Positions 8,201 through 42,877 of a stretch of DNA of 64,000 nt are shown here, in pieces (the stretch's first letter is position 1; each line of letters starts with the position of its first letter). Location of the stretch: assembly GCA_013265495.1 (NCBI GenBank), contig MU057981.1:62001-126000 (forward strand), given 5' to 3'. Position numbers and translations under genes: made by a program. Under the pieces are notes generated by a model. That model was not told the DNA's origin, did not search any database, and was given only the letters and a program-made list of their open reading frames with translations. This DNA comes from Vicugna vicugna. Its lineage: Eukaryota.

Positions 8201-10569
8201 CTCTTCTTCATAAACAAGTGGTTATTTTTGATGTAGCTATCATTTAGCATATAATTATAAATATAAGTATATTAAAATTCTTAGACACTTCTGAGTCTAT
8301 TTCAAGCCAAAGGAAATAAAGGAGAAGGAGAAGTTTGCACTGATTTAGGTGAAGATCTGTATAGTGTGTTGGGAATTGATATTCACATTTGATGGTTGAG
8401 TAGCACTCATTTTCTGTGACTAACTAATCAGCTGGGTTTTGTGGATGGATTTCATTATGCTATGAGAGCCAAAATTATATTTTTACATTATTAAATACAA
8501 TGCATTGCAAGATGCCATTTTAAGAGTTATATATCCAATATAAAATAAAATGAATAATTAAGGAGAGAAACAATTTTCCAAGGGCCCATATTAGAAGAAA
8601 ATATAACAGCTATGTTAGCTATTGATTTTTTACTGCATCTTCAAACCTACTGAATCCTGATTTGGTAGAAAGAACCTTTAGTTTACATTCAGCTCCCAAT
8701 GTTACAATTGCAGATTTGTGTCAACTTAACTTTTCTCTAAGTTGGCTTATTTATCTATAACATGGGATAGTGATATTTCTACCACATGGTTGGTGCCAAA
8801 ATTAAATGAGATAGTTTGGGGAAGTGTCTATGCATAGTGATTAGCACAGGAAAGGCACTCAACAAATGATGAAAAGGAGAAGTTACAACTGACACCACAG
8901 AAACAAAAATAATCATTTATATCACTATGAACAATTATATGCCAATAGTATAGACAACTTAGAAGAAATGGACAAATTCCTAAATGTACAATATCCCAAG
9001 GTTCAATTAGGAAGAAATAGAAAATGTAAACAGACCAGTTACTAGTAATAAAATTAAATCAGTAATAATAATAATAAAAAAAATCCCAAGAAACAAGAGT
9101 TCAGAATCAGACAGCTTCACAGGTGAAACTTAATCCTCTCAAACTGGTTTTAAAAATTTCAGAGGAAATTACACTTCCAAACTCATTCTATGAGGCCAGC
9201 ACCACCCTGATACTAATATTAGGCAAAGACACCACAAAAACAAAACAAAACAAAACAAAACAAAGAAACAAACAAAAAACCTACAGGCCAATATCATTAA
9301 TGAACATAGATACAAATATCCTCAATAAAACATTGGCAAACCAAATTCAACCATACAGTAAAATGATCACACACCATGATCAAGTGGGATTTATCCCATG
9401 GGTTTAAGAATGGTTCAGTATTTGCAAGTCAGTCAATGTGATATCCCAGATTAACACATTGAAGAATAAAAATCATATGATAAACTCATAGATACAGAAA
9501 AATATTTTGATAAGATTCAACATCCATTTACAATTAAAAACCCCAAACAAAGTGAGTAAATAGGAAACAGGTCTCAACATAATAAAAGCCATGTATGACA
9601 AATCCACAGTTAACAGCATACTCAATGGTGGAAAGTTGCTAACATTTCTCTGAAGTCAGGAGCAAGACAAGGTTGCCCACTTTCAACACGTTAATTCAAC
9701 ATAATATTAGAAGTCCTAGCCACAGTAATTAGATAAGAAAAAGAAATGAATCAATCCAAATTGGAAAGGAAGAAGTAAAACTTTCGCACCTGTTTGCAGA
9801 TGACATGACACTATGTTTAGAGAATCCTAAAGATGCCACCAGATAACTATTAGAAGTCACCAATTAGTTCAGTAAAGTTGTAGAATATAAATTTAATATA
9901 CAGAAATCTTTATATCTATTGCATTTCTACTCACTAACAATGAGCTATCAGAGAGAGAAACCAAGAAAACAAGCCCATTTACAATTTCATCAAAAAGAAT
10001 AAAATACCTAGGAATAAATGTAACTAATGAGGTGTGAGACATTTGCTCAACAAAACAAAAAACACCAAAACTATAAAATATTGTTAAAAATTAGAAGCCA
10101 ACATAAACAAATGGTAGGATATACTGTGCTCATGGATTGGTAATCCACAGATTCAATGCAATATCCATCAAAATACCAATGATGTTTTTTCACAGAACTA
10201 GGACAAAAGCTAATATTTGTATGGAAACACAAAAGATCTTGAATAGCCAAAACAATCTTGAGAAAGAAGCAAAGCTGGAGATATCCCACTCTTTGATTTC
10301 AAACTATATTACAAAGCTACAGTAACAAAAACAGTATGGTATTGACATTAAAAAACAAACAGACCCATAGTTGAAATAGGCTTGAAAGTCCAGGGATAAA
10401 CCCAACATAAAATGATCAATTAATCAATGACAAAGGAGGCAAGAATGTGCAATGGCAAAAAGACAGCCTTTTCAACAAACTGTGTTGGGGAAACCAAACA
10501 GTTACATGCTAAATAATCAAACTGGACTACTTTCTCACACTATATATAAAAATAAACTCAAAATGGATT

Positions 10570-10646
10570 TATTTTACTTTATTTTTGAAGTATATTCAGT
10601 TTACAGTGTTGTGTCAATTTCTGATGTACAGCATAATGTTTCAGTC
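10570..10646 (-). mobile_element. Very short L1 3'-tail insertion within an L1
   Basis: Matches the L1 extreme 3' end also seen at 32420-32490 and 38270-38340. Flanked by imperfect repeats aaatggattta / aagttgattta. Confidence 0.7.
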
Positions 10647-10986
10647 AAAGTTGATTTAAATGTAAGTACTGAAACTATAAAACTCCTAGAAGAAAACATA
10701 GACAATACACTCTTTGACATCAGTCTTATAAATACTTTATTGGATTTGTCTTCTCCAGCAAGGAAAACAAAAGCAAATATAATGAAAAGGGACCAAATCA
10801 ATCTAAAAAGCTTCTGCACAGAGAATGAAACTATAATCAAAACAGAAAGTTGCCTACTGAATGGAAGAAGATATTTGCAAACTTCATGTCTGATACGGGA
10901 CTAACATCCAAAACATACAAATAACTCATATAATTCAACATGAAAAAAACCCAACAAATTCATTTAAAAAAATGAGCAGAGGACTG

Positions 10987-11515
10987 GCGCGGGCCGCCGG
11001 CGGGGCCGTGCGGGAGGAGGCACCCAGGCGGAGGGCCCGGATCCTTTTTAAGTTTTCTCCCGGCCACCGTTACTTGGAAGGGGAGTGTGTGTCTGTGTGT
11101 GTGGAGAGAGCTTGCAGGTCCCACTCCCCGACTCACCGCGGGCGATCACAGTTCCGGCCGAAAGGAGAAAGGAGATGAAGCTCCTGGCGGCTCGGCCCGT
11201 CCGGAAGCGGCGCCGCGCCCCTGCCGCCAGGCCCCGCGCCTGCTCCCCGTCCAGGTGCGGAGGCTGCAGGCGGGCCGCGGGGGAGGTGGGGGGCGAGCGA
11301 GCGGCCGGGCCCCCTAGGAGGCTGGCGGCGCGGAGGCCGCGGGCTACCGGGGTGACCCGAGCAGGGGACTTGAGTCATCCTAAGAGTGTGAGGGACGCGT
11401 CCTTCAAGCCTCGGAACCCGCAGCTTCGAGTCTTGGAAAAAGTGTTGGGCTCTGAGTTTTCTTGAGCGCTCGAAAGAAAAACCAGTAATTGCTGCGGGGG
11501 TTTTGGTCGTTTCGA
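10987..11515 (-). promoter_or_regulatory. CpG-island/promoter-like segment with putative first exon and splice donor
   Basis: Very GC- and CpG-rich. Contains an ETS-type CCGGAAG (11201-11207), TGAGTCA (11371-11377), a MYB-type CCGTTA (11067-11072) and a minus-strand donor GCG|GTGAGT (11136-11131). Confidence 0.6.
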
Positions 11516-12534
11516 TTGTATTTTAATTGCACTTTCCTAGAAGTTCTAGAACCAGAGCCAAAGACACTTTAATTCGGGGGAGGGGGCAGGAGAAGGAGAA
11601 ACTTCTGTTTCTATCTTGTTAAAGAAATGTTTGTTTAATTTCCCCCTAGGGGAAAAAAAAGTGTGTTAACACTCACATATTTCTCACAACGTAAGATATT
11701 TATTTAAACATGCTAGCGCTTTAATGTCCAAAACATGACGGCATTTTTCTGATCCCTGTCCAAAGTGTCCATCTCCCTGCCAGTTTCTTCCTTGAAACAA
11801 CTCTTACTCCCCAGAAAAATCATTTTTATTCTCTGTTTCCAGTATGAGCACTGTAGTTACAGTGAGAGCCTTAAAAAAAATAGCTTCTTTTAAGAAGTAC
11901 AGGCTTCTCTACAGATAAGATATTTTTGCCGGTTCCTTTCCCCTCACTCATCATTTTAAAATATCTGAAATATTGTAAATCAACTATACTTCAATTAAAA
12001 AACACCCTGAAATATTTGGGAGATAGCATCAATTCAAAATCTTTACCACGTCAAAAGCCAAAAGTACTTCTTACTAAATCAGAATTGAAGTATTTTCTCT
12101 CCATTGTCTATATTATTAAGAGAAGTAAATTAGGATTTTTAAAAACGGAGAGACTATAGTTTTAATTTCTTCAAGGGTAAGTAATAAGAAATCACTGAAC
12201 CTTAATACTTTACAGTAGTCCTCTTTAAGAAACTGTTTCCACACTAAATGTTAAAACAATTGGAGAAATGAGTTTAGCGCAATGGAGCCATTATTAAGTA
12301 AAATTCACTTCTCTTTGAAACCACTATGAAATGCAGGCCCAACAATTGCTTTTGAAATTATGTATTTTATACAAAAATATTTTTAGAAATGTATTTAATG
12401 AAATGCATATGTACATATTTTAATAGAAATACAATGCTTTATAAACTTATGGATATGATAAGTGTGAATAACTTGAGTCCAGGAACCAGTGGGTGGCAGA
12501 GAAGGTATAACAATACATCCTTGCACCAACCTTG

Positions 12535-12890
12535 AGGAGCTTTAACCTGAATCTAATCACGAGGAAGCATCAGACAAACACAAATAGAGGGAAATTCTAC
12601 AAAATAACTGGACTGTATTCTTAAAACATTGTCAGTGTCATAAAAGTAAGACAAAACTTGCAGATTAAAGGAAACTAAAGACATGACAACTAAATGCAAT
12701 ATGTGACCCTGGACTGAATACTGGAGGAGGAAAATGTTATAAAGGGCATTATTGGGATGATTGATGTCACTGGAATATGAACTGTAGTTTAAGTATGTTA
12801 TTCATGTTAAATTTCCAGAATGTGTTATGTATGAGAATATCCTTGTTCATAAGAAAACACACTGAAATATTAAAGGATAAAGGAACATTA
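12535..12890 (+). mobile_element. Old L1MC/ME-like 3' fragment inside the captured segment
   Basis: aacctgaatctaatcacgaggaagcatcagacaaac...taaatgcaatatgtgaccctggactg is typical of old L1M 3' UTRs. Confidence 0.65.
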
Positions 12891-15839
12891 AAAAGAAGAA
12901 TATATGCTAAACATTGGCACAGCCATTATGGAAAACAGTATGGAGATTCCTCAAAAAACAAAAAATAGGCTTACCATATGATCCAGCAATCCCACTCCTG
13001 GGCATATATCTGGAGAAAACTCTAATTCAAAAGGATACATGCACCCCAATGTTCATAGCGGCACTATATACAATAACCAAGACATAGAAACAACCTAAAT
13101 GTCCATCAACAGATGACTGGATAAAGAAGTTGTGGTATATTTATACAATAGAATGCTACTCAGCCATAAAAAATAATAAAATACTGCCATTTGCAGCAAC
13201 ATGGATGGATCTGAAGATCGTCATTCTAAGTGAAGCAAACCAGAAAAAGAAAGAAAACTACTGTATGGTATCATTCATATGTGGAATCTAAAAAAAAAAA
13301 AAAAAGAAGCAGCAGAAGGAAAAAGAGGATCACTAATGAACTCATCTACAAAACAGAAACAGACTTGCAGACATAGTAAACAACCATATGGTTACCTGGG
13401 GAAAGAGGGTGGGAAGGGATAAATCAGAGTTTGAGATTTGCAAATGTTAACCACTATATAAAAACAGATAAATAAACAAATTTCTTCTGTATGGCACATG
13501 GACCTATATTCATATCTTCTAATAACCTTTAAAGAAAAAGAATATGAAAACAAACTTATGTATATATATGCACGATGGGGATATGCTGTATACCAGAAAC
13601 TGACATGTTATAACTGATTATACTTCAATTTAAAAAATTAAACAAAAAAAATACTGAAGTACATTTAAGCAGAAACACACATAAGACAGACAATGTATTA
13701 ATCAGTTGACAAAAATGTTCAACTCTCATGAATTTGTCTCATGAGAACTTAACTGTAAATAATGAGGATCAACTATATACAACAGTTTTTATATGAATTT
13801 AAAAACAACTCAAAAATAATTTATAGAATAGGTGGATACAGATCAATCTAGGAATAATGTGAAAAGTATTGGTTAGATATATAATGAATTAATGATACTG
13901 TTGCCTCTAATAAATGAAGAGAGCAAACTGGCCTGGGAAAGGGAAGAGACAAGTTAAATTTTCATTGTAGTTAATTTTAAATGTAAAGTTGCTCTCATTT
14001 TACTTAAAAAAGATTGTAACCCACTAAAAAAAAATAAATAATGGTCAGTTATCTCGGATCCCATCTCTTGAGTTACAGATTCGCATTAGTTTTTTGGTCT
14101 TTGTCTTTTGGCCTGGGAAAGAACTCTTACAATCTGTCTTAGAAATCATTTATTTCATAATATTGACCATGTTTAGTCTGATAGGAGCACATTTCATCCT
14201 CACTGCATCTTAACCAAGCTCCTACAGCGTCTCTGTGATACAAGAACCCCCACTGCATGTGGTTCCCGGGACATGCCTTGCACCCTCCACTCCGCGGACT
14301 CAGGTCCCCTGCCTGCAGTGTCCTGCCTGACCGAACACAGCCCGGTCTGCAGATCTGGGCACAGTCATCCCCTCCCCCACACTCTACCTTTCTTTTTATT
14401 TTTAATAGCAAGTACCAATGCTCACTAAGCTTTTGCCTTATATTCTTTTGTATCATTCACATCCTTATATGAGTCTTATTTTTCCTATGAAATTTGAGAA
14501 AGTCCTTAAAGCCAGAGTCCAAAAGTCCTCTTCAATGAAACCTCTAACTTAATAGAAATTGGGTTTCTAGAAACATCTACAGACATTAAATATATGAAAA
14601 CTGAACAACATGTTTACATATTACAAGGTAATTCCATTCCCAGAAAGCTAAAATTTTCTATAAATTTCCAAAATCATTTCCAACAATTTGGACATAATAT
14701 TTGATAATATATTTGCTTGTATTTATGTTTTATTTTACTTTCATAAATTTATCTACAAGTGTAAGCATCATAAAAACACAAATGAAGCCAAAAATTTGCT
14801 GCTTTGGTTCCTTGCTTTACAAGGAGGTCCTTTTCTTTCTATACTTCTTTCCATCCTTCTTTCCATCTTATCCTTCCTAGGGATTCTTGGATTTATCATT
14901 TTGTTCCTTCTCTGAACTTCTTCCCACATCCCTCACCAAGAGGTTAAGAAGGACTCATCTTATTAGTGAGCTGTGGATACTGTCCTAAAAATCGCAATAT
15001 TGACCTGCCTTTCCCTCACCTTCTGCTCTGTCCGCAGCAGTCACCGGCCACGTCTTGCCCGGTGACCGCTGGTAACCATGTGTGAGAGCTGCCTTGCAGA
15101 TTCAACTTTGCCCACAATGTAGATAAGGAGGGTTATTAGATATCTTTTTCTTGTGTCACAGAAACAGTCTCTAATCCAACCTTAACAGGATAGAGATGCT
15201 TTGACCTTTAGAGGTTATTGGGAATCTAGCTACATCATTAATGATGCTCACACTATACTTTTATATTCTTATTTAATATTGGTCTATTATCAGTTATTAA
15301 AATTCCAAAAAGATAATAAGTATATACCCACCTCAACCCCCAACACATAACCTTTACTATGTCAGGGAGTGGTTAAAGGCCTGCCTGTGGGCTGAGCCGG
15401 CCCTGAATTCTAATCGCTGCTTTGATATGTGTTAATGTTATGCTTCTGTTTCCTCGGCTATCCATGGGAATAACCTGTTTTAAAGATTGTGAGGATTAAG
15501 TAAAACAATTTTTTGAACAGTGTCTTGCCTTCGATAAATGTTAGCCACTATGATTATTATCCCTATTTATTCCCTATTTTAATGGTTGCAGGCCATGCCC
15601 TAAGCCCTAGGGACAGAGATCTAAACTAGACCAAATTCATTCCATACTCACCTAGTGGCAGGTAGACTATACAGAGGTAAACACATCCATTAGTTAATTT
15701 CTTAAGTTTATTGCAAAAATATTTAATGGGCATCCAAGTATATACCAGGTTCTAAGTACTGCAGATGCTTCAGTAAGCAAGCAAAACAGACAGAAAGTAC
15801 TATCCAATTTCAAAAAAATAAAAAATAAGAAAAATGAAC

Positions 15840-15870
<31 letters not shown>

Positions 15871-17861
15871 TATCATTTTCTGATATATAAAGAAAAATTA
15901 AGTTGGAGAATAGAGAATGAAAAGTAGGGAATGAGAAGAGAATAGTTAGATTCATTATGTGCTCTAAATGTGGAAAGGACAGAAGGAAGTTCATGTAGAC
16001 AGAGTGTCTGGATCAAGAGTGAGAACACTCTGATATTGGGGTGAAGGGGTGGGCAGAAGCCAAACCAGGGAAAGCCTTGGAAGATTTAATAAGAGGTTTG
16101 TATTTTAAATTTAATAAAGAAATGTTAGGCATTTATAAGCAAGGACTTAACATGACCTGATGAAGCTTTTCAAAAAAGATCTCATTGTCTGAGAATAGAT
16201 CAAAAGGAGACAAGAGTGGAAGCAGAAGCAGCCAGGAGGCTGTTACAAGTCCAGGTGTGAGGTGGCAGTGGACTAGGGAGGTAAGAGTAAAGACTGCCAA
16301 CATGCTAGAGATATATAGGAGAAGAAAGATTACTTTCCTAAGGGCATAGCCTTGATACAGAATCCTAGGACGGTACCTGTTCCATTTTCTCTGTTGAAGT
16401 TGCTATGGGCTCCACATTTCATTCAAGGCCACAGGAGACATTTCCAATGTCACTGGGATAAATGTGCATAGTGGGAAAGTCACTTAGACTATAGCAACAA
16501 ACACCTAAGAAGGTGACTCTTCTTTGGAACACTTAAAACTGACAGATGGGACCTGGGTTATATATGTCTTACCAAGGGATACATGGACATAGGAAAAATT
16601 ATGGGAATATATATATATCAAGTTCATATGATTCCATAAAAAATTAATCTCTTGATGAGGCACCAAAATTCCTTTTCCATCTTCCCCACCCACCTCTGTG
16701 TGAGGGCCCTTTTCCATATTGTAAAACAAAGGCACACCTCTCACTAACCCTAAAGTTTACTATGCTTCCTTATTTCAAGGACACTAAAAAAAAGAGTCTG
16801 TTTCACATATTGTATCTGGGAAATATGTTTTAGTCTAGGAACCAGAAACCTATAGAAGGTTTCCCTGTACATATTTTGGCTAAAATCCAAGGATAGCATC
16901 ATAAATGTGATCTTTTTCATGGGTTGGTGTTATCTAAATTCACATATGGAGAGGATTGGTAGTAACAATGATGGCTTTTACTTAACAACCTCAAGTCTTC
17001 ACCCTCAGACCAAGGTCAAAAAAATAAAATCTTTTCCAAAGAGTGTACTGTGAAATTAAAACAAAGAAAGCATTGGCAAGAAATACGGTAGGTGACTTCA
17101 TCTGGATGACCAGCCCGCTGTTAAACCGTCTCCTGATTCCCTGCTTTTCCTTCTTCCCTTCCCTTGCCTTCTCTTCTCCTCCTTTTCTTCTTGTCTTCTC
17201 TGCTTTCCCTTCTTCTCTTCTACCATCTCTCCTTTCTTCTCCTTCTCCTCCTCCTCCTTTTTTCTGCTTCTCCCATCTTACAGTTAGAATTCTGAAGTGA
17301 CATGCTATTACCTAATAACATATTCATTTGAGAGTGATTAATAGTGTGCACTAGTTTTTGTTATTAGGTTACATGAACGTGTTTAGGACTTCATAGGCAC
17401 CAATTAGCAGCAAGGTGACTCAATTAAATAGAATGATGCCAGCCTGCCGGCAGGACATGTGAGAAGCAATTAAATATCTGCTTTATATGGTTTTTTTTTC
17501 ATATATTGACTAAACTAAGAATATATTTCTGAAGTTTTGAGGAAAATATATCTGATGCACTTGGTAATATGAAAAGTTTCTAAAAATATTTTGTTGTAAA
17601 GAATGTTTTGAAATGAATAAATTTTGCAATTTTCTTAACTTTTTCTGACTATTTTGGGTTGAAATAAAGTGCATCTAGGTGAAAAAAACAAAGGTATATA
17701 ACCAGTAGTCATTTTAACCATTTTTAATTCTTTGTATTTCTCTCCAAAATTCAGAAATTGAGCTATTGTAGTAATTGACATTTCAAAAAAATATATATCC
17801 TTTAGCAAACAATGATATTTCTAATTATTTGTTGTTAACAACATTGAAAGAGGCATAATTG

Positions 17862-19535
17862 CTCCTTTCTCCCTCTCAGAACCTTCCTGCCACTGCATTT
17901 GGACCTCACTACTCCAGCCTCTGGGGCCCATCCCATCCTTCCAGCCTGTGACCAGCAGCAGAAAAAAACAAATTACATATCATTTTCTTGCCCTGTACAC
18001 ACCTTGAAGTGAGCAAAAAGATTAGAATAACTTTTAACCATAGGGAAATTGTGCACATCCAGGGAGGTCAGTGTAGCAACCAGATCGGTGCCAAGTTCTG
18101 GGAGGTGATCGGTGATGGACATGGCAGTGACTGCACCGGCACCTATCATGGGTCAGCTGGACTGCATCTCTGTGTACTACAGTAAAGCCACAGATGTTAA
18201 ATATGCTCCTCGTGCTATCTTGGTGGATCTAGAACCCAGGACCATGGACTCTGTTCACTCAGGTCCTTTTGATCAGATCTTCAGACCAGACAACTTTGTT
18301 TTTTGTCAGTCTGGTGCAGGCAACAACTGGGCCAAGGGCCACTACACAGAGAGGGCCGAGCTGGTTGATTTGGTCTTGAAAGTGGTTCGAAAGGAGGCCA
18401 AGAGCTGTGACTATCTACAGGGCTTCTAGCAGACCCACTTGTTGGGCAGGGGTATGGGCTCTAGGACGGGCACCTTGCTCATCAGCAAGATCCATGAAGA
18501 GCATCCTGACCACATCATGAACACCTTCAGTGTGGTGCTGTCACCCAAGTTGTCTGACACTGTGATGGAGCTCTACAACGCCACCCTCTCCATCCATCAG
18601 TTGGTGGAGAACACCACCGAGACCTACTGCATTGACAATGAGGCCCTTTAGACATCTGCTTCTGCACCCTTAAGCTGACCATGCCAACCTACAGGAACCT
18701 GAACCACCTCGTCTCAGCCACCAAGAGTGGTGTCACCACCTGCCTTCACTTTCCTGGTCAGCTCAATGCTGACCTCCACAAGCTGGCAGTCAACATGGTG
18801 CCCTTCCCACATCTCCACTTCTTCATGTCCAGTTTTGCCCCTCTCACCAGCCGTGGCAGCCAGCATCATCAGGCCCTCACTGTGCCCGAGTTCACAAAGC
18901 AGGTCTTCAATACCAAGAACATGATGGCTGCCTGTGGCCCCTGCCATGGCCGGCACCTCACCATGTCTGCTGTCTTCCATGAGTGATGTCAATGAAGGAG
19001 GTGGATCAGCAGATGCTCAAAGTGCAGAACAAGAATAGCAGCTACTTCATGGAATGGATCCCCAACAATGTCAAGACAGCCATTTGTGACATTCCACCCC
19101 GTGGCCTCAAGTTGGTGGTCACTTTCGTTGGCAACAGCACGGCCGTCCAGGAGCTGGTCAAGTGCATCTTGGATTAGTACACTTCATGTTCCATGGAAAG
19201 CATCCCTCCACTGTTACACAGGTGAGGATGTGGACAAGATGGAGTTCCCCAAAGCTGAGAGTAACATGAAAGACCTCATCTCCGAGTACCAGCGGTACTA
19301 CCAGGATGCCAGCGCAGAAGAGGAGGAGGATTTCGGTGAGGAGGCCGAAGGCTGAGCCCCGTCGCTGCACGTTTCTCAGTCCCCTCAGCCTTCTTCCTCA
19401 ATCACCCCTTTCCCTCAGAATTTGCATTTTCTACCTCTATCTTGTTTTTCCTTATTTTGGGAGTGTTGGTTCTAGAACAGTGCCTGCACATAATAGATGT
19501 TCAATAAATATTTGTTGTTTGTTGGAAAAAAAAAA
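17862..19535 (+). pseudogene. TUBB: Processed pseudogene of beta-tubulin class I (TUBB/TUBB5)
   Basis: Intronless beta-tubulin ([33 protein letters not shown]) with the class I tail [11 protein letters not shown] and a TUBB-like 5' UTR. The start codon is damaged (ccATAGGG) and there are stops and frameshifts. AATAAA at 19503-19508, an A-tail, and TSD gaggcataattg (17850-17861 / 19537-19548). Confidence 0.97.
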
Positions 19536-20449
19536 GGAGGCATAATTGAATTGCCTGGTGATGTATAATTAGGAATAAATTTTGATAGCATTTGGTCTTT
19601 TTGGTTTTGAGGGCTTATATTTCAGAAGGGTTTTAAAAAACTCATTGATATTACAACAAAAAAATTCCTTCAATTCCATCTTGTTATTATGAGTAATGTT
19701 TCTCTGCACAAAAAAAAAATGAAAAAGGAAAACCCCACTGAGTCATAAGATTAATGTTGAGCCTTGTCTCAATTTTACAAGTGCTTTTCTTCTACAGATA
19801 CCTAAACTTATTAGAAAGAAATGCCCTCTTTCTATTGCTAAGAGATTATTTTAAAATTAAATTATACATTGTATGTTTCATAATTTCTCAAAGTCCCCAA
19901 TATGTTTGTGTCATTTGGTCAGCTGTCTGTTAGTTATAATTGTTACAATGAGACCGATGGGCTGCCTACTGCACTAAGTAGACAAGTAATTATAATTGTT
20001 ATGATGACTACATAGAAGGAATTGTTTGTGGCTCAGAGTCTTATTATCACAGGATTTTTTTCCTTTAATTTATTGAAATATTTCTGTAGCAGAAAAGCAT
20101 AAGAATGTGATTAATAAGTTGTTTAGGCTTAAAAGATATTATATTAGAATTCAATTATCTAAGGGAAGCAGTATAAAGTTACAAGTCCAAGGAGAATATG
20201 GAGAGATGTAAAACTTGTGACTGCTGAAGAAAACTTTTTCCATGCATTTTTGTAAATAATTGATGGTGGGTATCAAGTTACTTTGGTATTTTGATTTCAT
20301 GCACTACATTTAAAAAGAAGCATGTAATTTTTTTTAATTTTTATTTTTGAAATGTCATTATTTACAACTCACTAGGAATTGTATCAATGGTAACTTTTTA
20401 AACTCATGATAGAACTATTCAAATTTGTTAGGGTACATGAGCAAAAATG

Positions 20450-20801
20450 AGAAAAAGAAAGAAGAAGAAGAAGGAGAAGGAGAAGGAGAAGAAGAAAGGA
20501 AGAAGAAGAAGAAGAAGAAGAGAGAAGAAGAAGAAGAAGAAGAAGAAGAAGAAAGAAGAAGAAGAAGGAAGAAGAAGAAGAAAGAAGAAGAAGAAGGAAG
20601 AAGAAGAAGAAAGAAGAAGAAGAAGGAAGAAGAAGAAGAAAGAAGAAGAAGAAGGAAGAAGAAGAAGAAAGAAGAAGAAGAAGGAAGAAGAAGAAGAAAG
20701 AAGAAGAAGAAGGAAGAAGAAGAAGAAAGAAGAAGAAGAAGGAAGAAGAAGAAGAAAGAAGAAGAAGAAGGAAGAAGAAGAAGAAAGAAGAAGAAGAAGG
20801 C
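20450..20801. repeat. Polypurine GAA-derived repeat with a 29-nt higher-order unit
   Basis: The unit (GAA)4-G-(GAA)5-A repeats about 8 times. All ORFs called here are repeat artefacts. Confidence 0.95.
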
Positions 20802-22152
20802 CACTGATCTTTGCTGTCTCCAAAATCCAGAGTCCCATGTAGGCAATCCACCATCTTCTCACTTCAAGGGGGTACAACATATTCTTGAGGAATATATCCT
20901 AACATGTTTAAGAACATAAGAATTGTCAGAAAATTCATGAGATGACATGTTTTTCAAGGACAAATATTCTAAGTATACAGTATATGTATCTTACCAAGAC
21001 AGCCTAGGGTATCTGCTGCCTTCTGGTCTCTAATTCATAAAATAATATTTGTGATACAGCAGAGAGCAAACCTTTCTGGGGGTGATGAGATCTTTGGGAT
21101 AACTGTTGTCTGGATTATGGGAGAAAAATAAAATAATTGATGAATCCCTGAGTCATGATTTAAATAGCATCCTCCTCTTCTGCCTGGTTGAAAATTAACT
21201 ATAATTTGGAGAAAAATTTATTTGCCATAGCAACAATTTTATAATAAGTTCTAGGAGCTTAATTAATTTGCTCCATGGTAGTGTTCACATATGGAATACT
21301 CATTTCAATTGAAGTCACCACCTGATTAAATTCTCTGTAATCCTATTATTCTAAAGAACTATCCATTATATGTACTGGAAAAACTCAGAAAATAAATGGG
21401 AATATATTTGGAACTTCCACCTCTGTATCTTTCAAATCTATTAAGATATCTTTGCAATTCCATCAAGGTTTAAATATTTCTTTTGATTTACTGTTTCCAT
21501 AAAGAGGAACATCCAATGACTTCAACTTACTAACATCATGGAACTAGGTTTCCGTTGGTTTCATAGCACAGTAACTGGGGAAGAGACCAGAAGGGATGGC
21601 ATGGGTTCCTCTGGGTCTATCACAAGGTGATTCCAAGTGAGAGCTTCATTTATCAACCAAGTCCAGGTAAACTCTTATTCTGACTGTTATATTGAGACTC
21701 CAACTACTGTTTTGCCATTTCTGGATTCAAAAGATGGGACATTTTCCTTTCTCAGTGAAGAGTTACCCAGATCAATGGCCATGGAGAAATCTGAAAAACT
21801 CTGATATACAGAAGACTAAACTTAACTCACAACTAGAAATTAGGAGGAAGGACCTGACTCTACTGCCCAGTAACTCAAGTGAGCCCTTTGTTCTTGGGAC
21901 TCGTGATTGTTGGTTTTGTTCTTGGTGAATTCTGAATTGATTAACAGGAGAGGTCTCTTGATGTCAGACCATCCTCTGCACCCTGATTATTATGCCCATA
22001 GCGCTGTATCTGCAGTGACTGTACTCATTTTGTTAACAGCATTTAGCAATTAGCACTTGGGGTCAAAACCCCATGACTCATTCCACTCAACATGATGTTA
22101 CAAATGTCTCATAGATGTTCCTGTCCCACAGAGGACAAACTAAAAAGCTCTA

Positions 22153-23190
22153 CTATTTATTTATTTATTTGTTTGTGTATGTATGTATGTATTTATTTAT
22201 TTCTATATATAAATTAACCACTTTATTGAATATTAATAAACCATACATATAACTATACAAAATGCTTCCTTAGTATAAAATGTTGCTTGCAAAATAAATA
22301 CCAGTGTGCCTTTAAAAATGTAAACATCTTCCTCCTGGGCCCACCTGCCGGGCCCCAGAAGTAGTTCCAGGAGATACACCAGTGGGGAGGAAACCCCCAC
22401 TTGGGCCCCCGGCAAGTGAAGGCAGTCACTCACAGTCCCTTTTGCGACGTTGTTAAATTGCCCATGAAACAGGTGCCCATGACAAACAGGAGGGTGAAAT
22501 AGCTGCCCAGGCCCTGGGGCATCCTGGGGACTAGATGCTGTCCTGGTGTCAGTGACCATCCCCGCAGGCCCTGTGGGTGCACCTGAGGTAGACAATTGCA
22601 TAGTCAGTCACACCTCCTGGAGGGGTGGCCTGAGGGTCCCCTCAGTTGGGGAATAATTTCTTATAAGTCTGACATCTTTTGTCCTGGAGCTCAAAGCAGC
22701 TGTATCCAACAGCTTTGGATACACAAACTCACACAGAAAGGCCAACTCCGGAATGCTTGGGAGCGGCGACCACCAGGAGGGGTCTCTGATGCCAGCCACC
22801 GTCCCATCAGCTGTCCACAGAAAGGCCTCTCTCAGAGCCCAATGAGACACCCAAGTGGATGACTGGGAACTGGTCCTCAGAGTCCTGTGGGGCCCAATGC
22901 AGCCAGAAGGTGGAGCTCAGAAGGGAATTCTGTGGCAGTGAGAAGGATGTGGGTAACTTCCTTCTGGAGCTGGGGGAGGCTGCAGTCAGGGGAGGGTCTT
23001 GAGAGTCAGAAGGAGCCTTAAGAGTTATTGGGGGCCCCCTGAGCAGCCCGACTCTTGGTGCTTGTAGAGCAGGGACATTCGGGAGAAGGTTCTGGAGCAT
23101 CTTGCACTGGTACTCCTTGACATCTGAGTGGGTCTGGAGATGGGCCCGCAGGTTGGAGCGGTCGGTGAAGGTGCGGCTGCATTGGGAAAG
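22153..23190 (-). pseudogene. SNAI1: 5'-truncated SNAI1 (Snail) retrocopy: last zinc fingers plus full 3' UTR
   Basis: The minus strand reads CSRTFTDRSNLRAHLQTHSDVKEYQCK..CSRTFSRMSLLYKHQESGCSG, the SNAI1 C-terminus. A SNAI1-like 3' UTR follows, with AATAAA (tttatt 22222-22227), a decayed A-tail (ttta)n and TSD aaagctcta (22144-22152 / 23191-23199). Confidence 0.93.
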
Positions 23191-25042
23191 AAAGCTCTAT
23201 GTAAAAGATTTTGGTTAATTGTTTCACTTGATCAAGAGGAAAGGGTCTGGGACTGGCCATGAGACATGGTGAGATGCTAAGTATTCTTAAAGTGATAACC
23301 CAGCATTTCTATTGCTTTTTGTTACTGGATCTTTCACCCTGGGTCACCCAAAGGCTTTCTGGTCATTGTTTGGTTCTAACTGTGTTGCACACTTAGAAAG
23401 TACTTTAATGACCAACCAAGTCCCAAACAAACACATTAAATGCCAAGCCTCTAGTGATTGCACAGGTACCAATTCAGCCCAACCCCAAATTACTTCATCT
23501 TCTCTCTGATTTTTACCTGTAAAATCTATGCTTGTGTATTTAACCCAAATTGTGGATAGACTATATTGATAAATTCCTCTAATTTATTCTAAATGCAACT
23601 TTTTCTTCTTCACTCATGCCCTCATTCAAGCATTCGGGTCATGTTGTATTTCAGGTATAATCACCTATTGAGAAACAATAAGTGCTAGCAAATGGGGACA
23701 ATTGCCAACTTTCTTCTACTAAGTGTGAATGATCTTTCAATGTTGGTCCATTCAGTTGTGTGCTAAACTCTGTGGATCCTTCCAGACACTCTTCTTCCAG
23801 TTGTTGGGTTATTACTCTTTTTTGATTAATGCCTTAAAATATTCAAGTAAACTTAGGCAACATGGCAGACTTAGTTGAAATGTAAAACAAAATGAAAGTT
23901 CAACATTTCATAGAATCAATTTCTGTTTATTCCCCACACTTCATCCTCAGTGTTGACATAGATCTAGCTAATTACATGATCAGTTAAATCAGTTTCCTAT
24001 TGCCTCGGCTACTAATTTCCTCTCTGAGAATCTGGGTTGGCAGGAGTAGTCTTACCACTTCTGCCTCATACCAACCCAACAACCAATTAAATGTACCCAT
24101 ACATTCCCGAGCATTTGTTCTCAAAGGTGAAAGCAACAGAAAACTACTGTGAAATATGCACTAAAAAGCATTGCTCACAGCATCCATGAAAGCACTAAAC
24201 TCAAACCTCAAGGATGCGATTAACATGTAATGGGTCAGTTGACTCTAGAAAATGTAGGTAGATTATATTCTCTATTTGTGGGCTTGCATGACTTTTGGTA
24301 CCCATAGGAGTCTCAGGCTACTGTTTCAGTTTATTTTTCATTTGGTTGGCTATATTTGTGATTCTTCCTGGAGACAACCAGTGGGAGAGGGAGGTTACTT
24401 CTGAGAATAAAGGATCATGTAATCGTTTCCATCTCTCTAATTAATCTCTGCTGATTACACTATGGTTGATTCTCCTTTGATCCTTCTTTCCTCTCATCTT
24501 TAAGTTATTCTGGAGTTCTTCTGCAAAACAATTCATTTATTTTTGACTGTCTCTTTAGCTTGAATAGGATTTCAGAATCCTCAGGTATGCATTTGGTCTT
24601 ATTTTTATTCCTTGCTCAAGAAATTCTCCACCATTTACTTTGTTGATGGGACCCATTCTGACTTTGCAGCAGAGCTTTGGATTCATTTTATTTGTATACT
24701 TTTTTTCTATTATTTCAAACAATAATATTAATAAGTGATAAATGTGTTATTTAACTCTCTCTTGTCTTAAATTAGATATTAAGACAAAAGTAATTGTAAA
24801 ATCCTGCCTAGTTGCTAAGGAATGAAATCACAGCTCATAGATGTGATCTTGTGGTTGGTTGAACTCTTCTATTTTGAAGATTTTAAAAGCAAGAATAATC
24901 TCAAACATTTTTCACCTAAACAAGAATAGATATTAGCTTTATTATAAAAAGCTTTAATTAGGGCAGTAAGACTATTATTGTCATCCCTAGGGGATCTTTG
25001 CTGAAGAAAACTCATAATTACTTATAATTAAAAACTGGCCCA

Positions 25043-25962
25043 CCCAAGTGGAGAAATGCACGCCAGGCGGTCCGTGCGCCAGGTGGTCCGGCCAGGCTTC
25101 CTGGCCGCCCGGCGATCCCGATCCATCCGGCGTGCTCACCTGCTGATTGCTGAGGGTCACCTGCCTGTCGGCCTCTTTTTAGACCCTGCAAAGACATTGA
25201 TCGGATGGCCCGGCTGGTCCAGGCTGGTCCAGGCTGGGTCTTTTTCAGTAGACCTCGTCCCGAGGGACTGAATCTAGTTCCCTGCGCTGTGCGGTAGGAC
25301 TTTGGGGTGGAATCTGCCAGGATAGGACTTACAAAGATTTGGAGGATCCTGGAGAGGTGCTACCATCCAGAATTCTACAAGGACATTCAAGATATTGTGG
25401 ACAGACAGATGGATGGAAGACAGATCGAATGGAGGCCCCATTCCCTGGACCCGTTGGCCTAGAAGGATCGTGGTCAGTCTGGAAAAAACTCTTCCGACGA
25501 GGGTCTTGGAATGGAGTTTCTTGATCCGCGGAAGGTGTTTCTGCACAAAGAGGGGCGTTCTCGGCTTGAGAGCCCAAACCACTGCAGTTCAGCGATCCAC
25601 CCCGGTCAGGGCCAGGGTCAGAACTCAACTGACAGCTCCCCTCCCTCGTCTTGGGCATCCAACTTGGGAAACCCTCCTCCCTGCCCAAGAGAGGAAAGCC
25701 AAAAAGCTCCCCCTCACCCATCTTCTCCTCAGCCTGCCTCCAGCTTCCCCATGCCAATGACCTCATTCATGCTGCCGTACTTTGCTCCCTTTTGGGCCAC
25801 CAGGAAGCCTCCCCACCTTGGATCGGAATCCCTGACAAAAACAAATAGTGCTCCGGGGTACGGGTGGGGTGGTAGAAGGACTCTCTTCTCATGGGAGTGA
25901 TTTTTTACCTCCATAGAGGTGACAAGTTGAGAAAACACATAGAAACACCCAGAATAATAAAC
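25043..25962 (+). other. Unidentified TSD-flanked, GC-rich retroposed-looking insert
   Basis: Abrupt GC/CpG-rich block in AT-rich DNA. Direct repeat aaactggccca at 25032-25042 and 25963-25973, with AATAAA at 25956-25961. Contains ATG ORF 25511-25900 (129 aa). Confidence 0.6.
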
Positions 25963-27419
25963 AAACTGGCCCATGTCCAGGAAAAAGGCAGTTTGAGGAT
26001 GTGGGTGTTTGAGAGCTCGGAAAGAGGTTATGTGATATGCAAGACAGCGTCAAATGTGAGAAACAACACTGAAATTATAATTGAGGCATATTTATTAAAA
26101 AATTCTTTATAATACAAGGAAGGTTTTTTTTTAAGGAGGGTTATTAAAGAGAGAAACAAAGCAGTGGGGTCTCCAAAACGGGAGTATTTTAAAGGAGAGC
26201 AAAAAGAGGTGAAATATGCTTATTTCAGAAGGATCACTTCCGTAACTGGCTATGTTGAGTATGTTATTTGTGGGCACAAGGCATGAAAGATGCGGAAAAC
26301 CTTATGACTGAGCGTAAACAATTTGTTCAAGAAATTTTAGAAAAATGACTGATGGAAGACATGGTGCCAAGAGAGGATTTTAAAATATTTTTAATAGTTT
26401 TAACTAACATGTGAAAGAGAAGAAATTGACCAAAAAGCTAAAGACTTCTTTGTCTTGATGATCGGGCTGGATAAATTTTAGAAATAATTATATTATCTGG
26501 GTGACAAATTCTTAGTAAGGGAAGCAGCAGTCTCCACCAAATGGCAAAAATTCACCAAAACTGGGTTCAACTCTCCTCAAGTCTTCTTTTGAAAGTTCTA
26601 CTAGATCAGTGTGGTAGCGATCTGATGTTACAAGCACAGCAAAGAGATACTAGGTGAATAAATATTTACTGAACACCAAGTAGGTGCCAAATGCCATCAT
26701 AGGCATTGCCATCTTATTGAAGAATGCATTTTGTATTGCCAGTGAATATATGCTCTTTAAATTTTCTTCTACATTTAAGATTTTATAATTTTCTACTTAC
26801 CTTTGTGTTCTTCACAGAGTTATATGTTAAAACTGTCCTAAAATGGTCACAGCTATTAACTAATTCTTATTGTCAGAATACAGGTTCACTTGAGAATATT
26901 AGGCTGTGTACACATTTGTCTATAGTATCCAAGACCAATGTCAAGGAGATTTCTCCTCTGTTTTTTTCTAGGAATTTTACAAGTTCAAGTTTTATGTTTA
27001 ACTATTTCAAGTTAATTTTGTGTTTGTGTTGCTTACATTTTTAAAGTAGACCCTATGAGATCTCCAAAAGTCAGTTATTTGGGGGGGATCAAAGATTGTT
27101 GATCTTTGTGGGGAGATGGAGGGAGGCTGGGGTTTCCCTCTTTGCCCTCTTGGTGATGTACTGATCACTCCTCTTAATCAGTCTTATTACTTTTTTCCCT
27201 GAGAACTGCATTAGGAGGCCGTACACCACGTTCTCAATGAATGAGCTATTGACATGTTAGAGAAGCAATAAAACTTCAGCTGTAAATTGATGCCAGTCAC
27301 TGGCAGGGATCCTCCTACCTACCCTTTACTGGCCTCTGGGGAAGGAATGCACAGGAGACGCATCCGTGAATTTACATTTTCTTAAAATTTCCAGTTAACT
27401 TAATTGCTGCATCTATGTA

Positions 27420-28854: not shown

Positions 28855-30780
28855 CTGTGGGAAACAAAGACTCTGCTCTTAAAGGGCACATGCAAAATAC
28901 ACATGCTTTAACACCCAGCTCAGAGATGATAATTTGGAAAGAACCTGAGTCAGACCCACTTCCTGACCTTGGAGAGACTCCCAGAGACTGGAGGTCCTGG
29001 GATTCCTCCTGGGGACACAGAGGCTTGTGGCAGCATTCTGGGGTGCTTGTTCTATGACAGTGATACTGGTGCTGCTAAGTGCCTTTTTAAAGCCCCCTCT
29101 CTAGCCTATTAGCACCTGACAGAGGCGTACCTACCCAACAGCTGGCCAGTCTTGGGAACACCAGTCCCAGCAGCAATCAATGCCATTGCCTGGCCACAAC
29201 AGCCAGTGGTCCAGCCTCAGCCCTGGATCTTCCTGGCTTATGAACCAGCCATAGCAGGAGCCAACCCCGCTCACCAGCAACTGGAAGCCTTCGCACAGGT
29301 TAGCGCCTGGCAACCAACAGGCTGAGGGCCAGCCCCATCTACCAATGTGTGACAATCAGCCCACACAGAGGACACTCCAGATCACACAACTCTGGGAAAC
29401 AGAGAGAAGTGTGCTGCTGGGCCCCACGTAAGACTCCTTTTCCTATGTAAGTCCACTTCTCCAAGATTGGGGAACATAAATGACCTACCTAATACATACC
29501 AAAAAAAAAAAAAATACAGAGACTTATGCAAAATGAGGTGAAAGAGGGATATAAAATATAAAAATAAGACCCCAGGAGAACAAGGAAAAGTGGAGATAAG
29601 CAATCGGCCTGGACAAAAGTTCAAGGTAATGATCATAAAAATGCTTATTGAACTCAGAAGAAGAACAGAAGAACACAGTGAGACATTTAACAAGAGTTCA
29701 AAAATATTTAAAAAATCAAACAGAGCTGAAGAATACAATGAATAAAAAATACAAAGGAAGAAATTAACAGTAAATTAGATGATACAGAGGAATAGATCAG
29801 CCAACTGGAAGACAGAGTAATGGAAAATACCCAAGCTTAAACAAACAAAAAAAACTTTTAAAAATGAGGACAGTTTAAGATACTTCTGGGACAACATCAA
29901 GCATTCGCAGTGTAGGGAATCTCAGGAGAGGAAAGAGAGAAAGAGGGAGAGAACTTATTTAAAGTGATGATAGATGAAAATTTCTCCCACATGGGAAAGG
30001 AAATAGACACTCAAGACCAGAAAAAAATGGAACCCCAAACTAGATCAACCCAAAGAAATTCACAGCAAGGCATATTGTCATTAAAATGGCAAAATTTAAA
30101 GATAAAGAAAACAAATAAATCAATTTAAAAGCAGTGTTGACTGAAATATATGTGCAGCCAAAAAGTTAAGAGTTATGTTTTATTTGATGGGAAGACTTGA
30201 GCCAGGATGACAGCCTCTCAGAACTCTCTGAGGGACTGCTCCCAAGAGGTAGGGGAGGAGCTAGGATATACAGGTGCTTTGCAACAAAGACCAGGTGCTT
30301 GGAACAACAGAAGATTGCTTGGTATCTAAAGAGAACCAGGCATCTCAAGTTCAAGAATTTAGTGCTTTTCTATGTATGGGAGGAAGCAGACATTTGGGCT
30401 CATTGAATCCATTCCTTTGTCAAGCACGTAGCTATCTAGGGCCAGTATCCTGTCCTTTCCTATTCTGAGTCCGCTCAGAGGGCACCACTGTGAAGGGCTG
30501 CAGAGGCTGGGCTGCAGGCATGTCCTCACTGGCGGGTGGTGGCAGCCGCTGATGACTTGGTTTCAGCATTCTTTGTTTACTGATATGTTTGCAGTATTTT
30601 CATTCACATTGCAGTAATTTCGTTCACAGCAGAAAGTCAAAAGCAGCCAGTTATGTAAAAGAGAAATTACATAAGACTCTCAATTAACTTTTTAGCAGAA
30701 ATTTTGCAGGTCAGAAGGCATAATACATTTAAAGTGATGAAAGAAAAAAATATATATATAACCAAGAATACCTGACTGGA
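28855..30780 (+). mobile_element. L1 5' UTR plus ORF1 fragment, interrupted by a solo LTR
   Basis: GC-richer 5' UTR followed by A-rich ORF1-like text (gagataagcaatcggcctggacaaaagttcaaggtaatgatcataaaaatgc). It resumes after the LTR. Confidence 0.8.
30135..30628 (-). mobile_element. Solo ERV LTR (ERV1-like)
   Basis: TG...CA termini with 4-bp TSD gcag (30131-30134 / 30629-30632). Minus-strand AATAAA near 30180. Confidence 0.85.
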
Positions 30781-32117: not shown

Positions 32118-33438
32118 TGTTGCCTATAGATGCAACTGGTGTTCCAGGTTTTTGTCCCATCCCAGAAAGAATTCAGAGACAAGACTTAGAGGTTAAAAAA
32201 GGTAAAGTGAGAATTTATTAAAGGACGGATAGTACACTCTCAGGGGAGAGTGGGCAGGCTCAGGGGAGTAGCTACCCTGAGTTTCTTTGGCAAGTCAGTT
32301 ACATAGGGTATAAAAATGAATGGGCAGAATATTTATTGGGGAGGAAAGGGTTTGGGGTCATATTCCCTGATTATCATCCCAACTCCACCTTCCCAAAGGG
32401 AGGAGGGATTTTTTTTTAACATTTTTTATTGATTTATAATCATTTTACAATGTTGTGTCAAATTCCAGTGTTCAGCACAATTTTTCAGTCATTCATGGAC
32501 ATATACACACTCATTGTCACATTTTTTTCTCTGTGAGTTATCATAACATTTTGTGTATATTTCCCTGTGCTATACAGTGTAATCTTGTTTATCTATTCTA
32601 CAATTTTGAAATCCCAGTCTATCCCTTCCCACCCTCCGCCCTCCTGGTAACCACAAGTCTGCATTCTCTGTCTGTGAGTCTATTTCTGTCCTGTATTTAT
32701 GCTTTGTTTTTGTTTGTTTGTTTGTTTTTGTTTTTGTTTTTTAGATTCCACATATGAGCGATCTCATATGGTATTTTTCTTTCTCTTTCTGGCTTACTTC
32801 ACTTAGAATGACATTCTCCAGGAGCATCCATGTTGCTGCAAATGGCATTATGTTGTCAGTTTTTATGGCTGAATAGTATTCCATTGTATAAATATACCAC
32901 ATCTTCTTTATCCAGTCACCTGTTGATGGACATTTAGGCTGTTTCCATGTTTTGGCTATTGTAAATAGTGCTGCTATGAACATTGGGGTGCAGGTGTCAT
33001 CCTGAAGTAGATTTCCTTCTGGATACAAGCCCAGGAGTGGGATTCCTGGGTCATATGGTAGGGAGGAGGGATTTTTGTCCTTATTTAGCCTGGATCGGAA
33101 GTGTCCTGGTGTTGGTGCATGATGGGCACTTCTGATCTGCAAGGCTAATTTTATTGAAATGAGGGCATAATGAGCAAAAGGTTACATTTGGACACTAGAA
33201 ATTCCTGCCTTTTCTCACCTTTCTTTGTTCTTCTCCAGGCCACTTGTCATCCCAAAAGGCATGATCCCTTATCAGCCCCAAGGTTCCTGCTTTCCTTTCT
33301 CTGCCCAAGGATCCCTGCTGCTCACATGATGTGTGGTTTCCTGCATTTGGCCTGTGCCCCTCCTTTCTGCCCAATTCCTGCCACTTGGTCTGTGTTCCCC
33401 TTTCTCTGCTCACATCTAGCTATTTGCCTGCTCTAACA
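32118..33438 (-). mobile_element. Solo ERV LTR split by a young L1
   Basis: tgttg...taaca termini with near-TSD atac/ataa and a minus-strand AATAAA near 32215. Confidence 0.75.
32414..33059 (-). mobile_element. Young 5'-truncated L1 (ORF2 C-terminus plus 3' UTR)
   Basis: Open ORF2p C-terminus (LPYDPGIPLLGLYP...WIKKMWYIYTMEYYSAIK) and a perfect 17-bp TSD agggaggagggattttt (32397-32413 / 33060-33076). Confidence 0.95.
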
Positions 33439-39053: not shown

Positions 39054-40254
39054 ACAGCTCATACAACTTAATAACCAAAACCCCAAACAACCCAATCGAA
39101 AAATGGGCAGAAGACCTAAACAAGAAATTCTCCAATAAAGACATACAAATGGCCAATAGGCATATGAAAAAAAATGCTCAATATCCTAATTATCAGAGAA
39201 ATACAAATCAAAACTGCAATGAAATATCACCTCACATCAGTCAGAATTGCTGTCATTCAAAAGTCTACAAATGATAAATGCTGGAGAGGCTGTGGAGAAA
39301 AGGTAATCCTCCTACACTGTTGGTGGGAATGTATTCTGCTGCAGCCATTATGGAAAACAGTATGGAGATTCCTCAGAAAACTAAAAATGGACTCACCATG
39401 TGATCCAGAAACCCCTCTTCTGGGTTATGTATCTGGAAGTAACTCTAATGTGAAAAGATACATGCATTGCAATGTTCATAGCAGCACTATTTATAATAGT
39501 CAAGACATGGAAATAACATAAATGTCCACTGACAGATGACTGGATAAAGAAGTTGTGATACATTTATATAATGAAATGCTACTCAGCCATAAAAAAGAAT
39601 AAAATAATGCCATTTGCAGCAACATGGATGGACCTAGAGATCATCATTGTAAGTGAAGTAAGCCAGAAGGAGAAAGAAAAATACCATATGATGTCACTCA
39701 TATGTGGAATTTTAAAAGAAGAAGAAGAAAAAGAAGAAGAAAAGAGGGCATTAATGAACTCATCTACAAAACAGAAACAGACTTACAGACATAGTAAACA
39801 ATCTCATGGTTACTGGAGAATGGGGATGGGAAAGGATAAATTTGGGAGTTTTAAGATTTACAAATGTTAGCCATTATATATAAAAATATATTTTTAAAAA
39901 ATTCTTCTGTATAGCACAGTCAACTATGTTCAGTATCTTGTAATAACCTTTAATGAAAAAAATGAAAACAAATATATGGATGTATATGCATGACTGGGAC
40001 ATTGTGCTGTACACCAGAAACTGACACGTTGTAATCAATATACTTCAATAAAAAAAAAGAACACTTTTACATTCATGTTCATCAAGGAAAAAAATAAATA
40101 AAAATAAAACACACTTGCAAATGGAAAAAAAGAGTCAAATTCCTCTGAATACACATCACATTTTTAAAAAACTTTTTTCACCCTATCAATATTTTTATAA
40201 AAATGTATACAATTATTCTCCCTGTAAATTATTTCTTTTTACTTAATCACATTT

Positions 40255-42846: not shown

Positions 42847-42877
<31 letters not shown>

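Follow-up and report, generated by a model that had tools for sequence, protein, structure and literature searches.

The CpG island at positions 10,987–11,520 of the window, the 64,000-nucleotide stretch of Vicugna vicugna DNA analysed here, directly abuts an old L1 fragment, in what is likely an ordinary DNA-rearrangement scar with a probably copied promoter piece, as opposed to DNA pasted into one L1. Tentatively, as the likeliest of the origins considered, we suggest that the promoter piece was copied from elsewhere and joined to the broken, old L1. A DNA break in this dead element would have been repaired by joining to the promoter piece of another locus together with its neighbouring DNA, through DNA-level copying in which a one-sided invasion was finished by end joining. 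The copied block may extend beyond 12,912, its CpGs may have been kept because the island was germline-unmethylated or was copied recently, and the L1 end at 12,913–13,650 would be a different element, likely inserted on its own. The first-pass annotation had proposed a genomic copy of another gene's promoter, captured within one L1 by templated break repair or template switching; the copied promoter is retained here, whereas a single-L1 patch and a double template switch both conflict with flanks that belong to different elements.

The CpG island and its left edge

The island, to which no strand is assigned, holds 54 CpGs in 534 bp with a GC content of 67% (0.67) and a CpG observed/expected ratio of 0.92, against 0.20 for the whole window and 0.21–0.64 in six other GC-rich pieces, which bears out the earlier claim that it is undecayed. 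CpG islands are defined by a length of at least 500 bp, a GC content of at least 55% and a CpG ratio of at least 0.65, and by this sequence definition 10,987–11,520, which is promoter-like, is an island. An Rfam scan of 10,900–12,400 gave 0 matches. At the left edge, GC content rises from 0.30 to 0.86 between neighbouring 50-bp bins, a step unmatched in the window, where the 5′ end of a retrocopy comes second. The island is cut on its left side at a very GC-rich point and tapers on its right. The position 10,986/10,987 is a genuine breakpoint and the only one shown; because the L1 pieces on either side are different elements (see below), 12,912 need not be an end of the foreign DNA.

A misjoin in the assembly, with a GC-rich contig end placed beside a repeat, seems quite unlikely. 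An L1 end next to very GC-rich DNA is a usual place for a misjoin, and the join is of this kind, but the window contains no N, and 0.74–0.88 of the sampled words of 10,900–13,000 are contained in 17 sequencing runs from 6 studies, which proves the sequence in other samples and not the join. No RNA run was listed among those containing the sequence, and the value of 0.07 of sampled words in three possible RNA runs carries no evidential weight.

That the island is the continuation of the L1, rewritten by GC-biased gene conversion, is extremely improbable. In many mammals, hypomethylated regions are reported to undergo such conversion more strongly (PMC11161765), but alignments in which changes from A/T to G/C were made cheap are no better than those of shuffles (z −2.2 to +1.0 in 12 anchored tests, −0.9 to +0.5 in 4 local tests), the island has no profile-HMM match, and its edge is a step and not a gradient. 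This reading is refuted unless the ancestor was a part of L1 that is absent from the window.

The island contains an ETS-type motif, CCGGAAG (11,201–11,207, plus strand), a second, shorter one (11,152–11,157, minus strand) and two splice-donor-like 9-mers, GCG/GTGAGT on the minus strand (11,131–11,139, GT at 11,136) and CAG/GTGCGG on the plus strand (11,252–11,260, GT at 11,255). The ETS motif and minus-strand donor singled out previously are indeed present, but they occur at the level of chance, as does the second ETS motif: among 2,000 dinucleotide shuffles of the island, CCGGAAG had P = 0.27, a pair of CCGGAA P = 0.18 and the donor pattern GGTRAGT P = 0.09. The proposed minus-strand orientation of a first exon is not confirmed, as the plus-strand 9-mer matches the consensus equally well (7/9 each) and would mark an alternative first-exon end. 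Downstream of the plus-strand GT the sequence is G-rich, with 8 G-runs versus 3 C-runs in 11,255–11,420 and a GC skew of +0.27 across 11,255–11,520.

To the right of the island, 11,521–12,912 (no strand assigned) is unspliced genomic DNA, rich in AT and containing relics of repeats, with a GC content of mostly 0.28–0.38 in the measured bins. In agreement with the older repeats noted there before, a 32-bp L1 3′ tail is flanked on each side by one copy of a 10-bp target-site duplication (TSD) at 11,965–12,016 (plus strand; BLAST match to the L1 tail at 60,990–61,032), and the DNA at about 12.3–12.9 kb is presumably an older L1M-type relic. The segment of about 1.9 kb was also said to lack a poly(A) and a TSD, and this stands: no TSD was found flanking 10,987–12,912 or 10,987–13,650.

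Two L1 elements flank the island

L1 ORF2 similarity stops at 10,984–10,986 and L1 similarity reappears from 12,913–12,920, as first described, but the two flanks are not the same element. On the left, an old ORF2 fragment (8,872–10,986, plus strand) is 73% identical (1,417/1,931 aligned columns) to copy B, the L1 copy at 34.9–40.06 kb; it ends approximately 0.95 kb before the L1 3′ end, without poly(A), and matches RVT_1 with an E-value of 6 × 10−6, under the curated cut-off. Nested in it is a short L1 3′ tail (10,565–10,647, minus strand) that is 79–81% identical to other L1 tails and bordered by a degenerate duplication. On the right, 12,913–13,650 (plus strand) is a separate 5′-truncated L1 3′ end of 0.73 kb with an A-rich tail at about 13,630–13,650; it belongs with copies B, E and F in one family, with 84–85% identity to these over the end of ORF2 and 83% identity to B over the 3′ UTR.

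A single L1 that broke and was patched with a templated insert of 1.9 kb in place of about 215 bp would fit two ends on the same strand, collinear and about 220 bp apart in the coordinates of copy B, around an insert without TSD or poly(A). Such a patch requires both flanks to come from the same prior element, and they do not: it is largely refuted and very improbable. Identity to copy B is 73% (540/742) in the left piece and 84% (342/405) in the right piece (Fisher p = 5 × 10−6), and as copies B and C are steadily 73–75% identical on either side of the gap, the step to 84% is no effect of a conserved region. Site patterns among three copies (A=B/A=C/B=C) number 72/78/97 upstream and 72/37/26 downstream (p = 5 × 10−6), and the right piece alone groups with copy B. 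The left piece is also richer in indels, with 54 blocks in 1,931 columns versus 11 in 708. The window contains a true single-L1 replacement, by a spliced MAPK7 fragment at 57.6–58.8 kb, and the flanks of this in-window control show no identity step (77% versus 73%, p = 0.25).

The pieces 8,872–10,986 and 12,913–13,650 are therefore different L1 elements, of which the right one is likely the younger. Two further L1 ends of the B/E/F family start no more than about 120 bp from the L1 start position of the right piece. Because the right piece is a 5′-truncated end like these two, the spacing of about 220 bp, previously read as the loss of about 215 bp from one L1 by comparison with the copy at 39,101–39,360, is probably a coincidence.

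No convincing TSD of the right L1 was found in the searches. TSDs are present at copies E and F and at the 32-bp tail, and a degenerate TSD at the more decayed copy B. A 60-bp degenerate repeat flanking the right L1 (equalled in 21 of 1,000 shuffles) and a 14-mer with 3 mismatches approximately 45 bp upstream of its 5′ end are too diverged or misplaced to be its TSD. This lack of a clear TSD counts against a copied promoter piece beside an independently inserted L1, and agrees with a right L1 that did not originate independently. Beyond its tail, a resumption of the old L1 was considered and rejected (z 1.3–1.7 over 160 bp against two in-register copies, where the left piece itself scores about 9). 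Values of z up to 4.0 occur over longer stretches, in gappy alignments, and an nhmmer search at E 10 found no continuation of the old L1 in 13,640–16,000; the L1-like signal beyond the tail is probably a much older relic.

Origin of the island

A native promoter is a possible but doubtful alternative, in which the island was always here, and both the L1 3′ end and some of the island were lost, whether through local deletion, inversion or an old L1 patch truncated at both ends. Of the situation once named as fatal to the pasted-promoter proposal, a native promoter between two separate L1s, the half concerning the two L1s holds, and the undecayed CpGs agree with it as well. Truncation of the L1 3′ end together with a target deletion is on record (PMC1920257). 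A weak plus-strand excess of T over A at 14–34.8 kb (0.051, CI 0.018–0.083, from a post hoc split with old repeats unmasked and one interval strongly opposite) would fit a native plus-strand transcript, against a copied promoter piece. The excess is present neither to the left of the island nor beyond 40 kb, and a functioning promoter would need to have outlasted a cut within its own island.

The points that favour a foreign over a native origin are each weak. First, the island is cut at its GC peak. Second, the adjacent L1 shows no gain of GC, with A/T changed to G/C at 12/123 sites near the join versus 20/178 further off; the argument from this missing spread is itself weak, as camelids do not appear in the main text of Joseph et al. 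(PMC11161765). Third, a Pfam scan of 214 frames of at least 48 amino acids from non-repeat sequence, a scan that misses non-coding or short first exons, detected no exon, with no family at cut-off and 3 matches at E < 0.01, all beneath curated cut-offs. Fourth, the 6.6 kb to the left of the island, the expected place of a minus-strand gene body, shows no strand asymmetry.

Searches for a donor or paralog found none in data other than mammalian genomes and none within the window. In metagenome contigs, the exact 27-base island pattern had 0 matches, and the back-translated island frame had 593 pattern matches of which 0 were confirmed; protein searches with island frames confirmed 0/555 and 0/4 candidates. 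Two phmmer matches to island frames were rejected as weak summed matches to tandem-repeat proteins, and the best ESM Atlas score for the island frame, 0.77, is uninformative. Minus-strand island frames were covered by the Pfam scan only.

Unlikely, but able to account for several features at once, is a chimera formed at the RNA level, in which reverse transcription from the L1 3′ end (13,650 to 12,913) switched to an unspliced pre-mRNA, copied to near its 5′ end (10,987), and the product was inserted with deletion of the 3′ part of the old L1. This would explain the abrupt start of the island, an edge paralleled by that of the retrocopy, the sense-strand donor at 11,255 with the G-rich sequence after it, and the A-rich tail and absent TSD of the right L1; host-RNA/L1 chimeras are described as mostly sense and starting at transcript starts (bioRxiv 2025.02.02.635956). 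Against it, 10,987–13,650 has no TSD (10,950–10,995 compared with 13,625–13,700 gave A-run matches only), the old L1 is not resumed after the tail, and the known mRNA chimeras, as described in the same preprint, consist of exons, lie within a TSD and are for the most part close to full length. The right L1 also differs at 7% of shared columns (21/298), so under an RNA chimera the island must have stayed unmethylated throughout. More improbable still is the fuller version. In it, the L1 reverse transcriptase would have moved from an L1 3′ end to a pre-mRNA that was still nascent and not yet spliced, and a gene's first exon, 1.65 kb of its intron and its CpG island would have been brought into a region that is rich in retrocopies and in which no exon was detected. 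There the island, unmethylated ever since, might act as a new orphan promoter firing rightwards.

Comparison with known systems

With a copied promoter piece joined to a broken L1, the event is of an already known kind, another rearrangement scar of little consequence in a repeat-rich mammalian region. It illustrates that L1 pieces lying collinearly on both sides of an insert should be compared by subfamily before they are treated as a single element. Should the island prove to be a moved promoter that is still unmethylated and active, the event would matter more: it would offer a natural way to test whether a new promoter can be founded by island sequence alone and, if it were also RNA-borne, would represent an unspliced variant of host-RNA/L1 chimeras.

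As described for class 2 templated sequence insertions (PMC5110952), the locus has no TSD, no poly(A) and possibly a distant donor, but its flanks are not two sides of one broken sequence, and the MAPK7 fragment fits this class better. mRNA/LINE-1 5′ chimeras such as RAP1GDS1-L1PA2 (bioRxiv 10.1101/2025.02.02.635956) are similar in that promoter-like host sequence, possibly in sense, lies on the 5′ side of an L1 end whose tail is A-rich; unlike those described there, our locus has no single TSD around host part and L1, and the host part is unspliced and not exonic, with approximately 1.4 kb of AT-rich DNA and a nested L1 tail, next to an L1 part of only 0.73 kb as opposed to a near-full-length one. 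The left L1 is truncated at either end and lacks a tail and a TSD, and in this it resembles non-classical, endonuclease-independent L1 insertions (PMC1920257); the study as reported required young elements and a known pre-insertion allele, whereas the left L1 is old and may have suffered a later deletion.

Segmental duplications are defined by more than 1 kb at more than 90% identity, and duplicated copies usually retain their methylation state (PMC4122940). Unlike this definition, no paralog above 1 kb exists inside the window, and for our locus both the extent of the block and the copying itself are inferred. The locus is nevertheless like an interspersed or segmental duplication in that unspliced genomic DNA with older repeats of its own meets its surroundings at a sharp junction, without TSD or poly(A) and with the CpG island intact.

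Layout around the CpG island

The DNA is AT-rich and mammalian, dense in L1 pieces and retrocopies. Starting from the left, similarity to L1 ORF2 runs from 8872 to 10984–10986, where GC rises from 0.30 to 0.86 across adjacent 50-bp bins, the sharpest change anywhere in the window; next comes the one where a TCTP retrocopy has its 5′ end. Here begins a CpG island (10987–11520, GC 0.67), with a CpG observed/expected ratio of 0.92 as opposed to 0.20 for the window and 0.21–0.64 for five retrocopies and an ERV-like piece. On its right side the island tapers into AT-rich DNA, in which a 32-bp L1 tail is flanked by a 10-bp target-site duplication, and L1 is seen again as a 3′ end with an A-rich tail (12913–13650). 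In the coordinates of B, an L1 copy at 34.9–40.06 kb, approximately 220 bp separate the two L1 ends. The first-pass annotation had proposed one L1 interrupted by a foreign promoter-like insert, with about 215 bp of L1 missing. The spacing comes close to that figure, and both the undecayed island and the AT-rich, repeat-bearing DNA beyond it are confirmed.

The ETS motifs and minus-strand donor reported in the island are both present, although at P 0.09–0.27 for the island's composition they do not exceed chance, and a plus-strand donor-like site at 11255, followed by G-rich sequence, scores the same as the minus-strand donor (7/9). As read from sequence, what was proposed as a first exon with upstream DNA may just as well be a first exon followed by intron 1, on the opposite strand. 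A search for a credible homologue of any island frame found none.

Retrocopy density in the window is high, at five per 64 kb. A beta-tubulin retrocopy (17848–19549, plus strand) has poly(A) and a 15-bp target-site duplication; another, with a homeobox-like part and an OAR motif (41700–43260, plus strand), is presumably PITX2-like and has a CpG ratio of 0.64, above the other retrocopies; and a C2H2 zinc-finger fragment (22150–23200, minus strand) we take to be SNAI1-like. The GC-rich remnant at 25000–26600 is, we assume, ERV-like. LTR-like pieces lie near 30140–30620 and 32130–33440, the latter interrupted by an L1 end whose 17-bp duplication is perfect, and a compound AAG/AGG repeat at 20430–20800 has a 58-bp higher-order period.

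Two L1 pieces and a MAPK7 control

The claim that the L1 resumes after the insert is not borne out. Identity to B is 69–79% in every one of ten bins for the left piece (8872–10986; 1417/1931 in total) and 83–85% in all four bins for the right piece (594/708); for the ORF2 stretches adjoining the junctions, the counts are 540/742 (73%) and 342/405 (84%; Fisher p=5e-6). This step does not reflect a more conserved part of ORF2, because B and C, a third L1 copy, are level on both sides (75% upstream, 73% downstream). In three-copy site patterns, the upstream counts (72/78/97) form a star-like set and the downstream ones (72/37/26) place the right piece with B (p=5e-6). With C exchanged for a further copy, D, the left piece lies nearer B than D (111/72/80), and hence is a relative of B's lineage outside B's family. 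Two further short L1 ends of the window, E and F, are 85% like the right piece and begin at most about 120 bp from the L1 position where it begins, so the near-register gap is, from these alignments, probably coincidence. The two pieces very probably belong to different elements.

Within C lies a spliced MAPK7 fragment (about 57610–58847, minus strand). Among 2018 candidates, 45 match at E 0.001 or better, all named ones being MAPK7, and a single alignment without introns covers residues 414–784. The fragment holds the C-terminal half and some 3′UTR; it lacks a tail, and its last 260 bases contain no poly(A) signal. The two halves of C are equally like B (330/429 versus 162/223, p=0.25), and C has lost about 11 bp. 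This L1–mRNA–L1 structure, formed via mRNA-templated repair or a double template switch, is a cleaner example of the event proposed for the island. It shows what replacement within a single L1 looks like, and the island locus is unlike it; a single L1 broken and patched at the island, which conflicts with the identity step that this control lacks, is very improbable.

The L1 holding the fragment (57368–61030) looks 5′-inverted, of the twin-priming type: the minus part stops at 57368, the plus part begins at 60602, and the two join at an identical L1 position; a search for a flanking duplication found none. Nested in it is the TCTP (TPT1) retrocopy (59325–60165, plus strand), with poly(A) and a target-site duplication. 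A near-identical ORF2 position, carrying a short direct repeat, is common to the right L1's 5′ end (12913), the L1 resumption after the MAPK7 piece (57609) and a small deletion in E (about 38960), possibly a preferred break or switch site, or chance.

Origin of the island

That the island is L1 overwritten by GC-biased conversion is scarcely credible: 12 anchored and 4 local alignments with cheap A/T to G/C changes score like shuffles, and an L1 profile search of the island gave no match. Alternatively, reverse transcription from an L1 3′ end could have switched to unspliced pre-mRNA, the whole unit inserting with a deletion. This stays alive because no convincing target-site duplication of the right L1's own was found, unlike E and F, where duplications are present, and B, where one is degenerate. 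Against it, no duplication bracketing 10987–13650 was found and the old left L1 is not picked up beyond the right L1's tail, so the evidence stops short of a clean retro-insertion carrying the island together with the L1 end; we consider this chimera rather unlikely. At 13650–14040 there is a faint, far more decayed relic resembling an L1 ORF2 end, which begins at about the L1 position where the left L1 breaks off.

A native promoter cut by local deletion is possible but doubtful. It has one weak sign in its favour, a T-over-A excess at 14–34.8 kb (0.051, CI 0.018–0.083); the split was chosen post hoc, old repeats were left unmasked, and one of the ten intervals points strongly the other way. 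Several signs, themselves weak, point to a foreign origin: the island is cut at a GC peak, the adjacent L1 has no GC gain (A/T to G/C changes 12/123 versus 20/178), Pfam on 214 non-repeat frames gave no family at its cut-off, and strand asymmetry is absent left of the island and beyond 40 kb. An assembly misjoin seems improbable; 17 runs from six studies contain 0.74–0.88 of sampled words of 10900–13000, so this sequence exists in other samples, a result silent on the join itself.

The likeliest mechanism, which we favour tentatively, would start with a break in the dead left L1, to whose end a copy of promoter-region DNA from another locus would have been joined; the right L1 would have inserted separately, and the copied block would run on past 12912. 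The copied promoter piece of the first-pass annotation thereby persists as the leading reading, but its setting within one L1 does not.

Comparison with known systems

The junction of island and L1 is likely one more rearrangement scar of a familiar kind. Both 3′-truncated L1s with target deletions (PMC1920257) and a methylation state kept after duplication (PMC4122940) are described. Templated patches in one L1, with their class 2 features (PMC5110952), lie within the same element, whereas the island's two flanks differ. From mRNA/L1 chimeras (bioRxiv 10.1101/2025.02.02.635956), the island locus differs in having neither the shared duplication nor the exonic content. By analogy, it would work like the junction of an interspersed duplication, a class whose membership requires a paralog.
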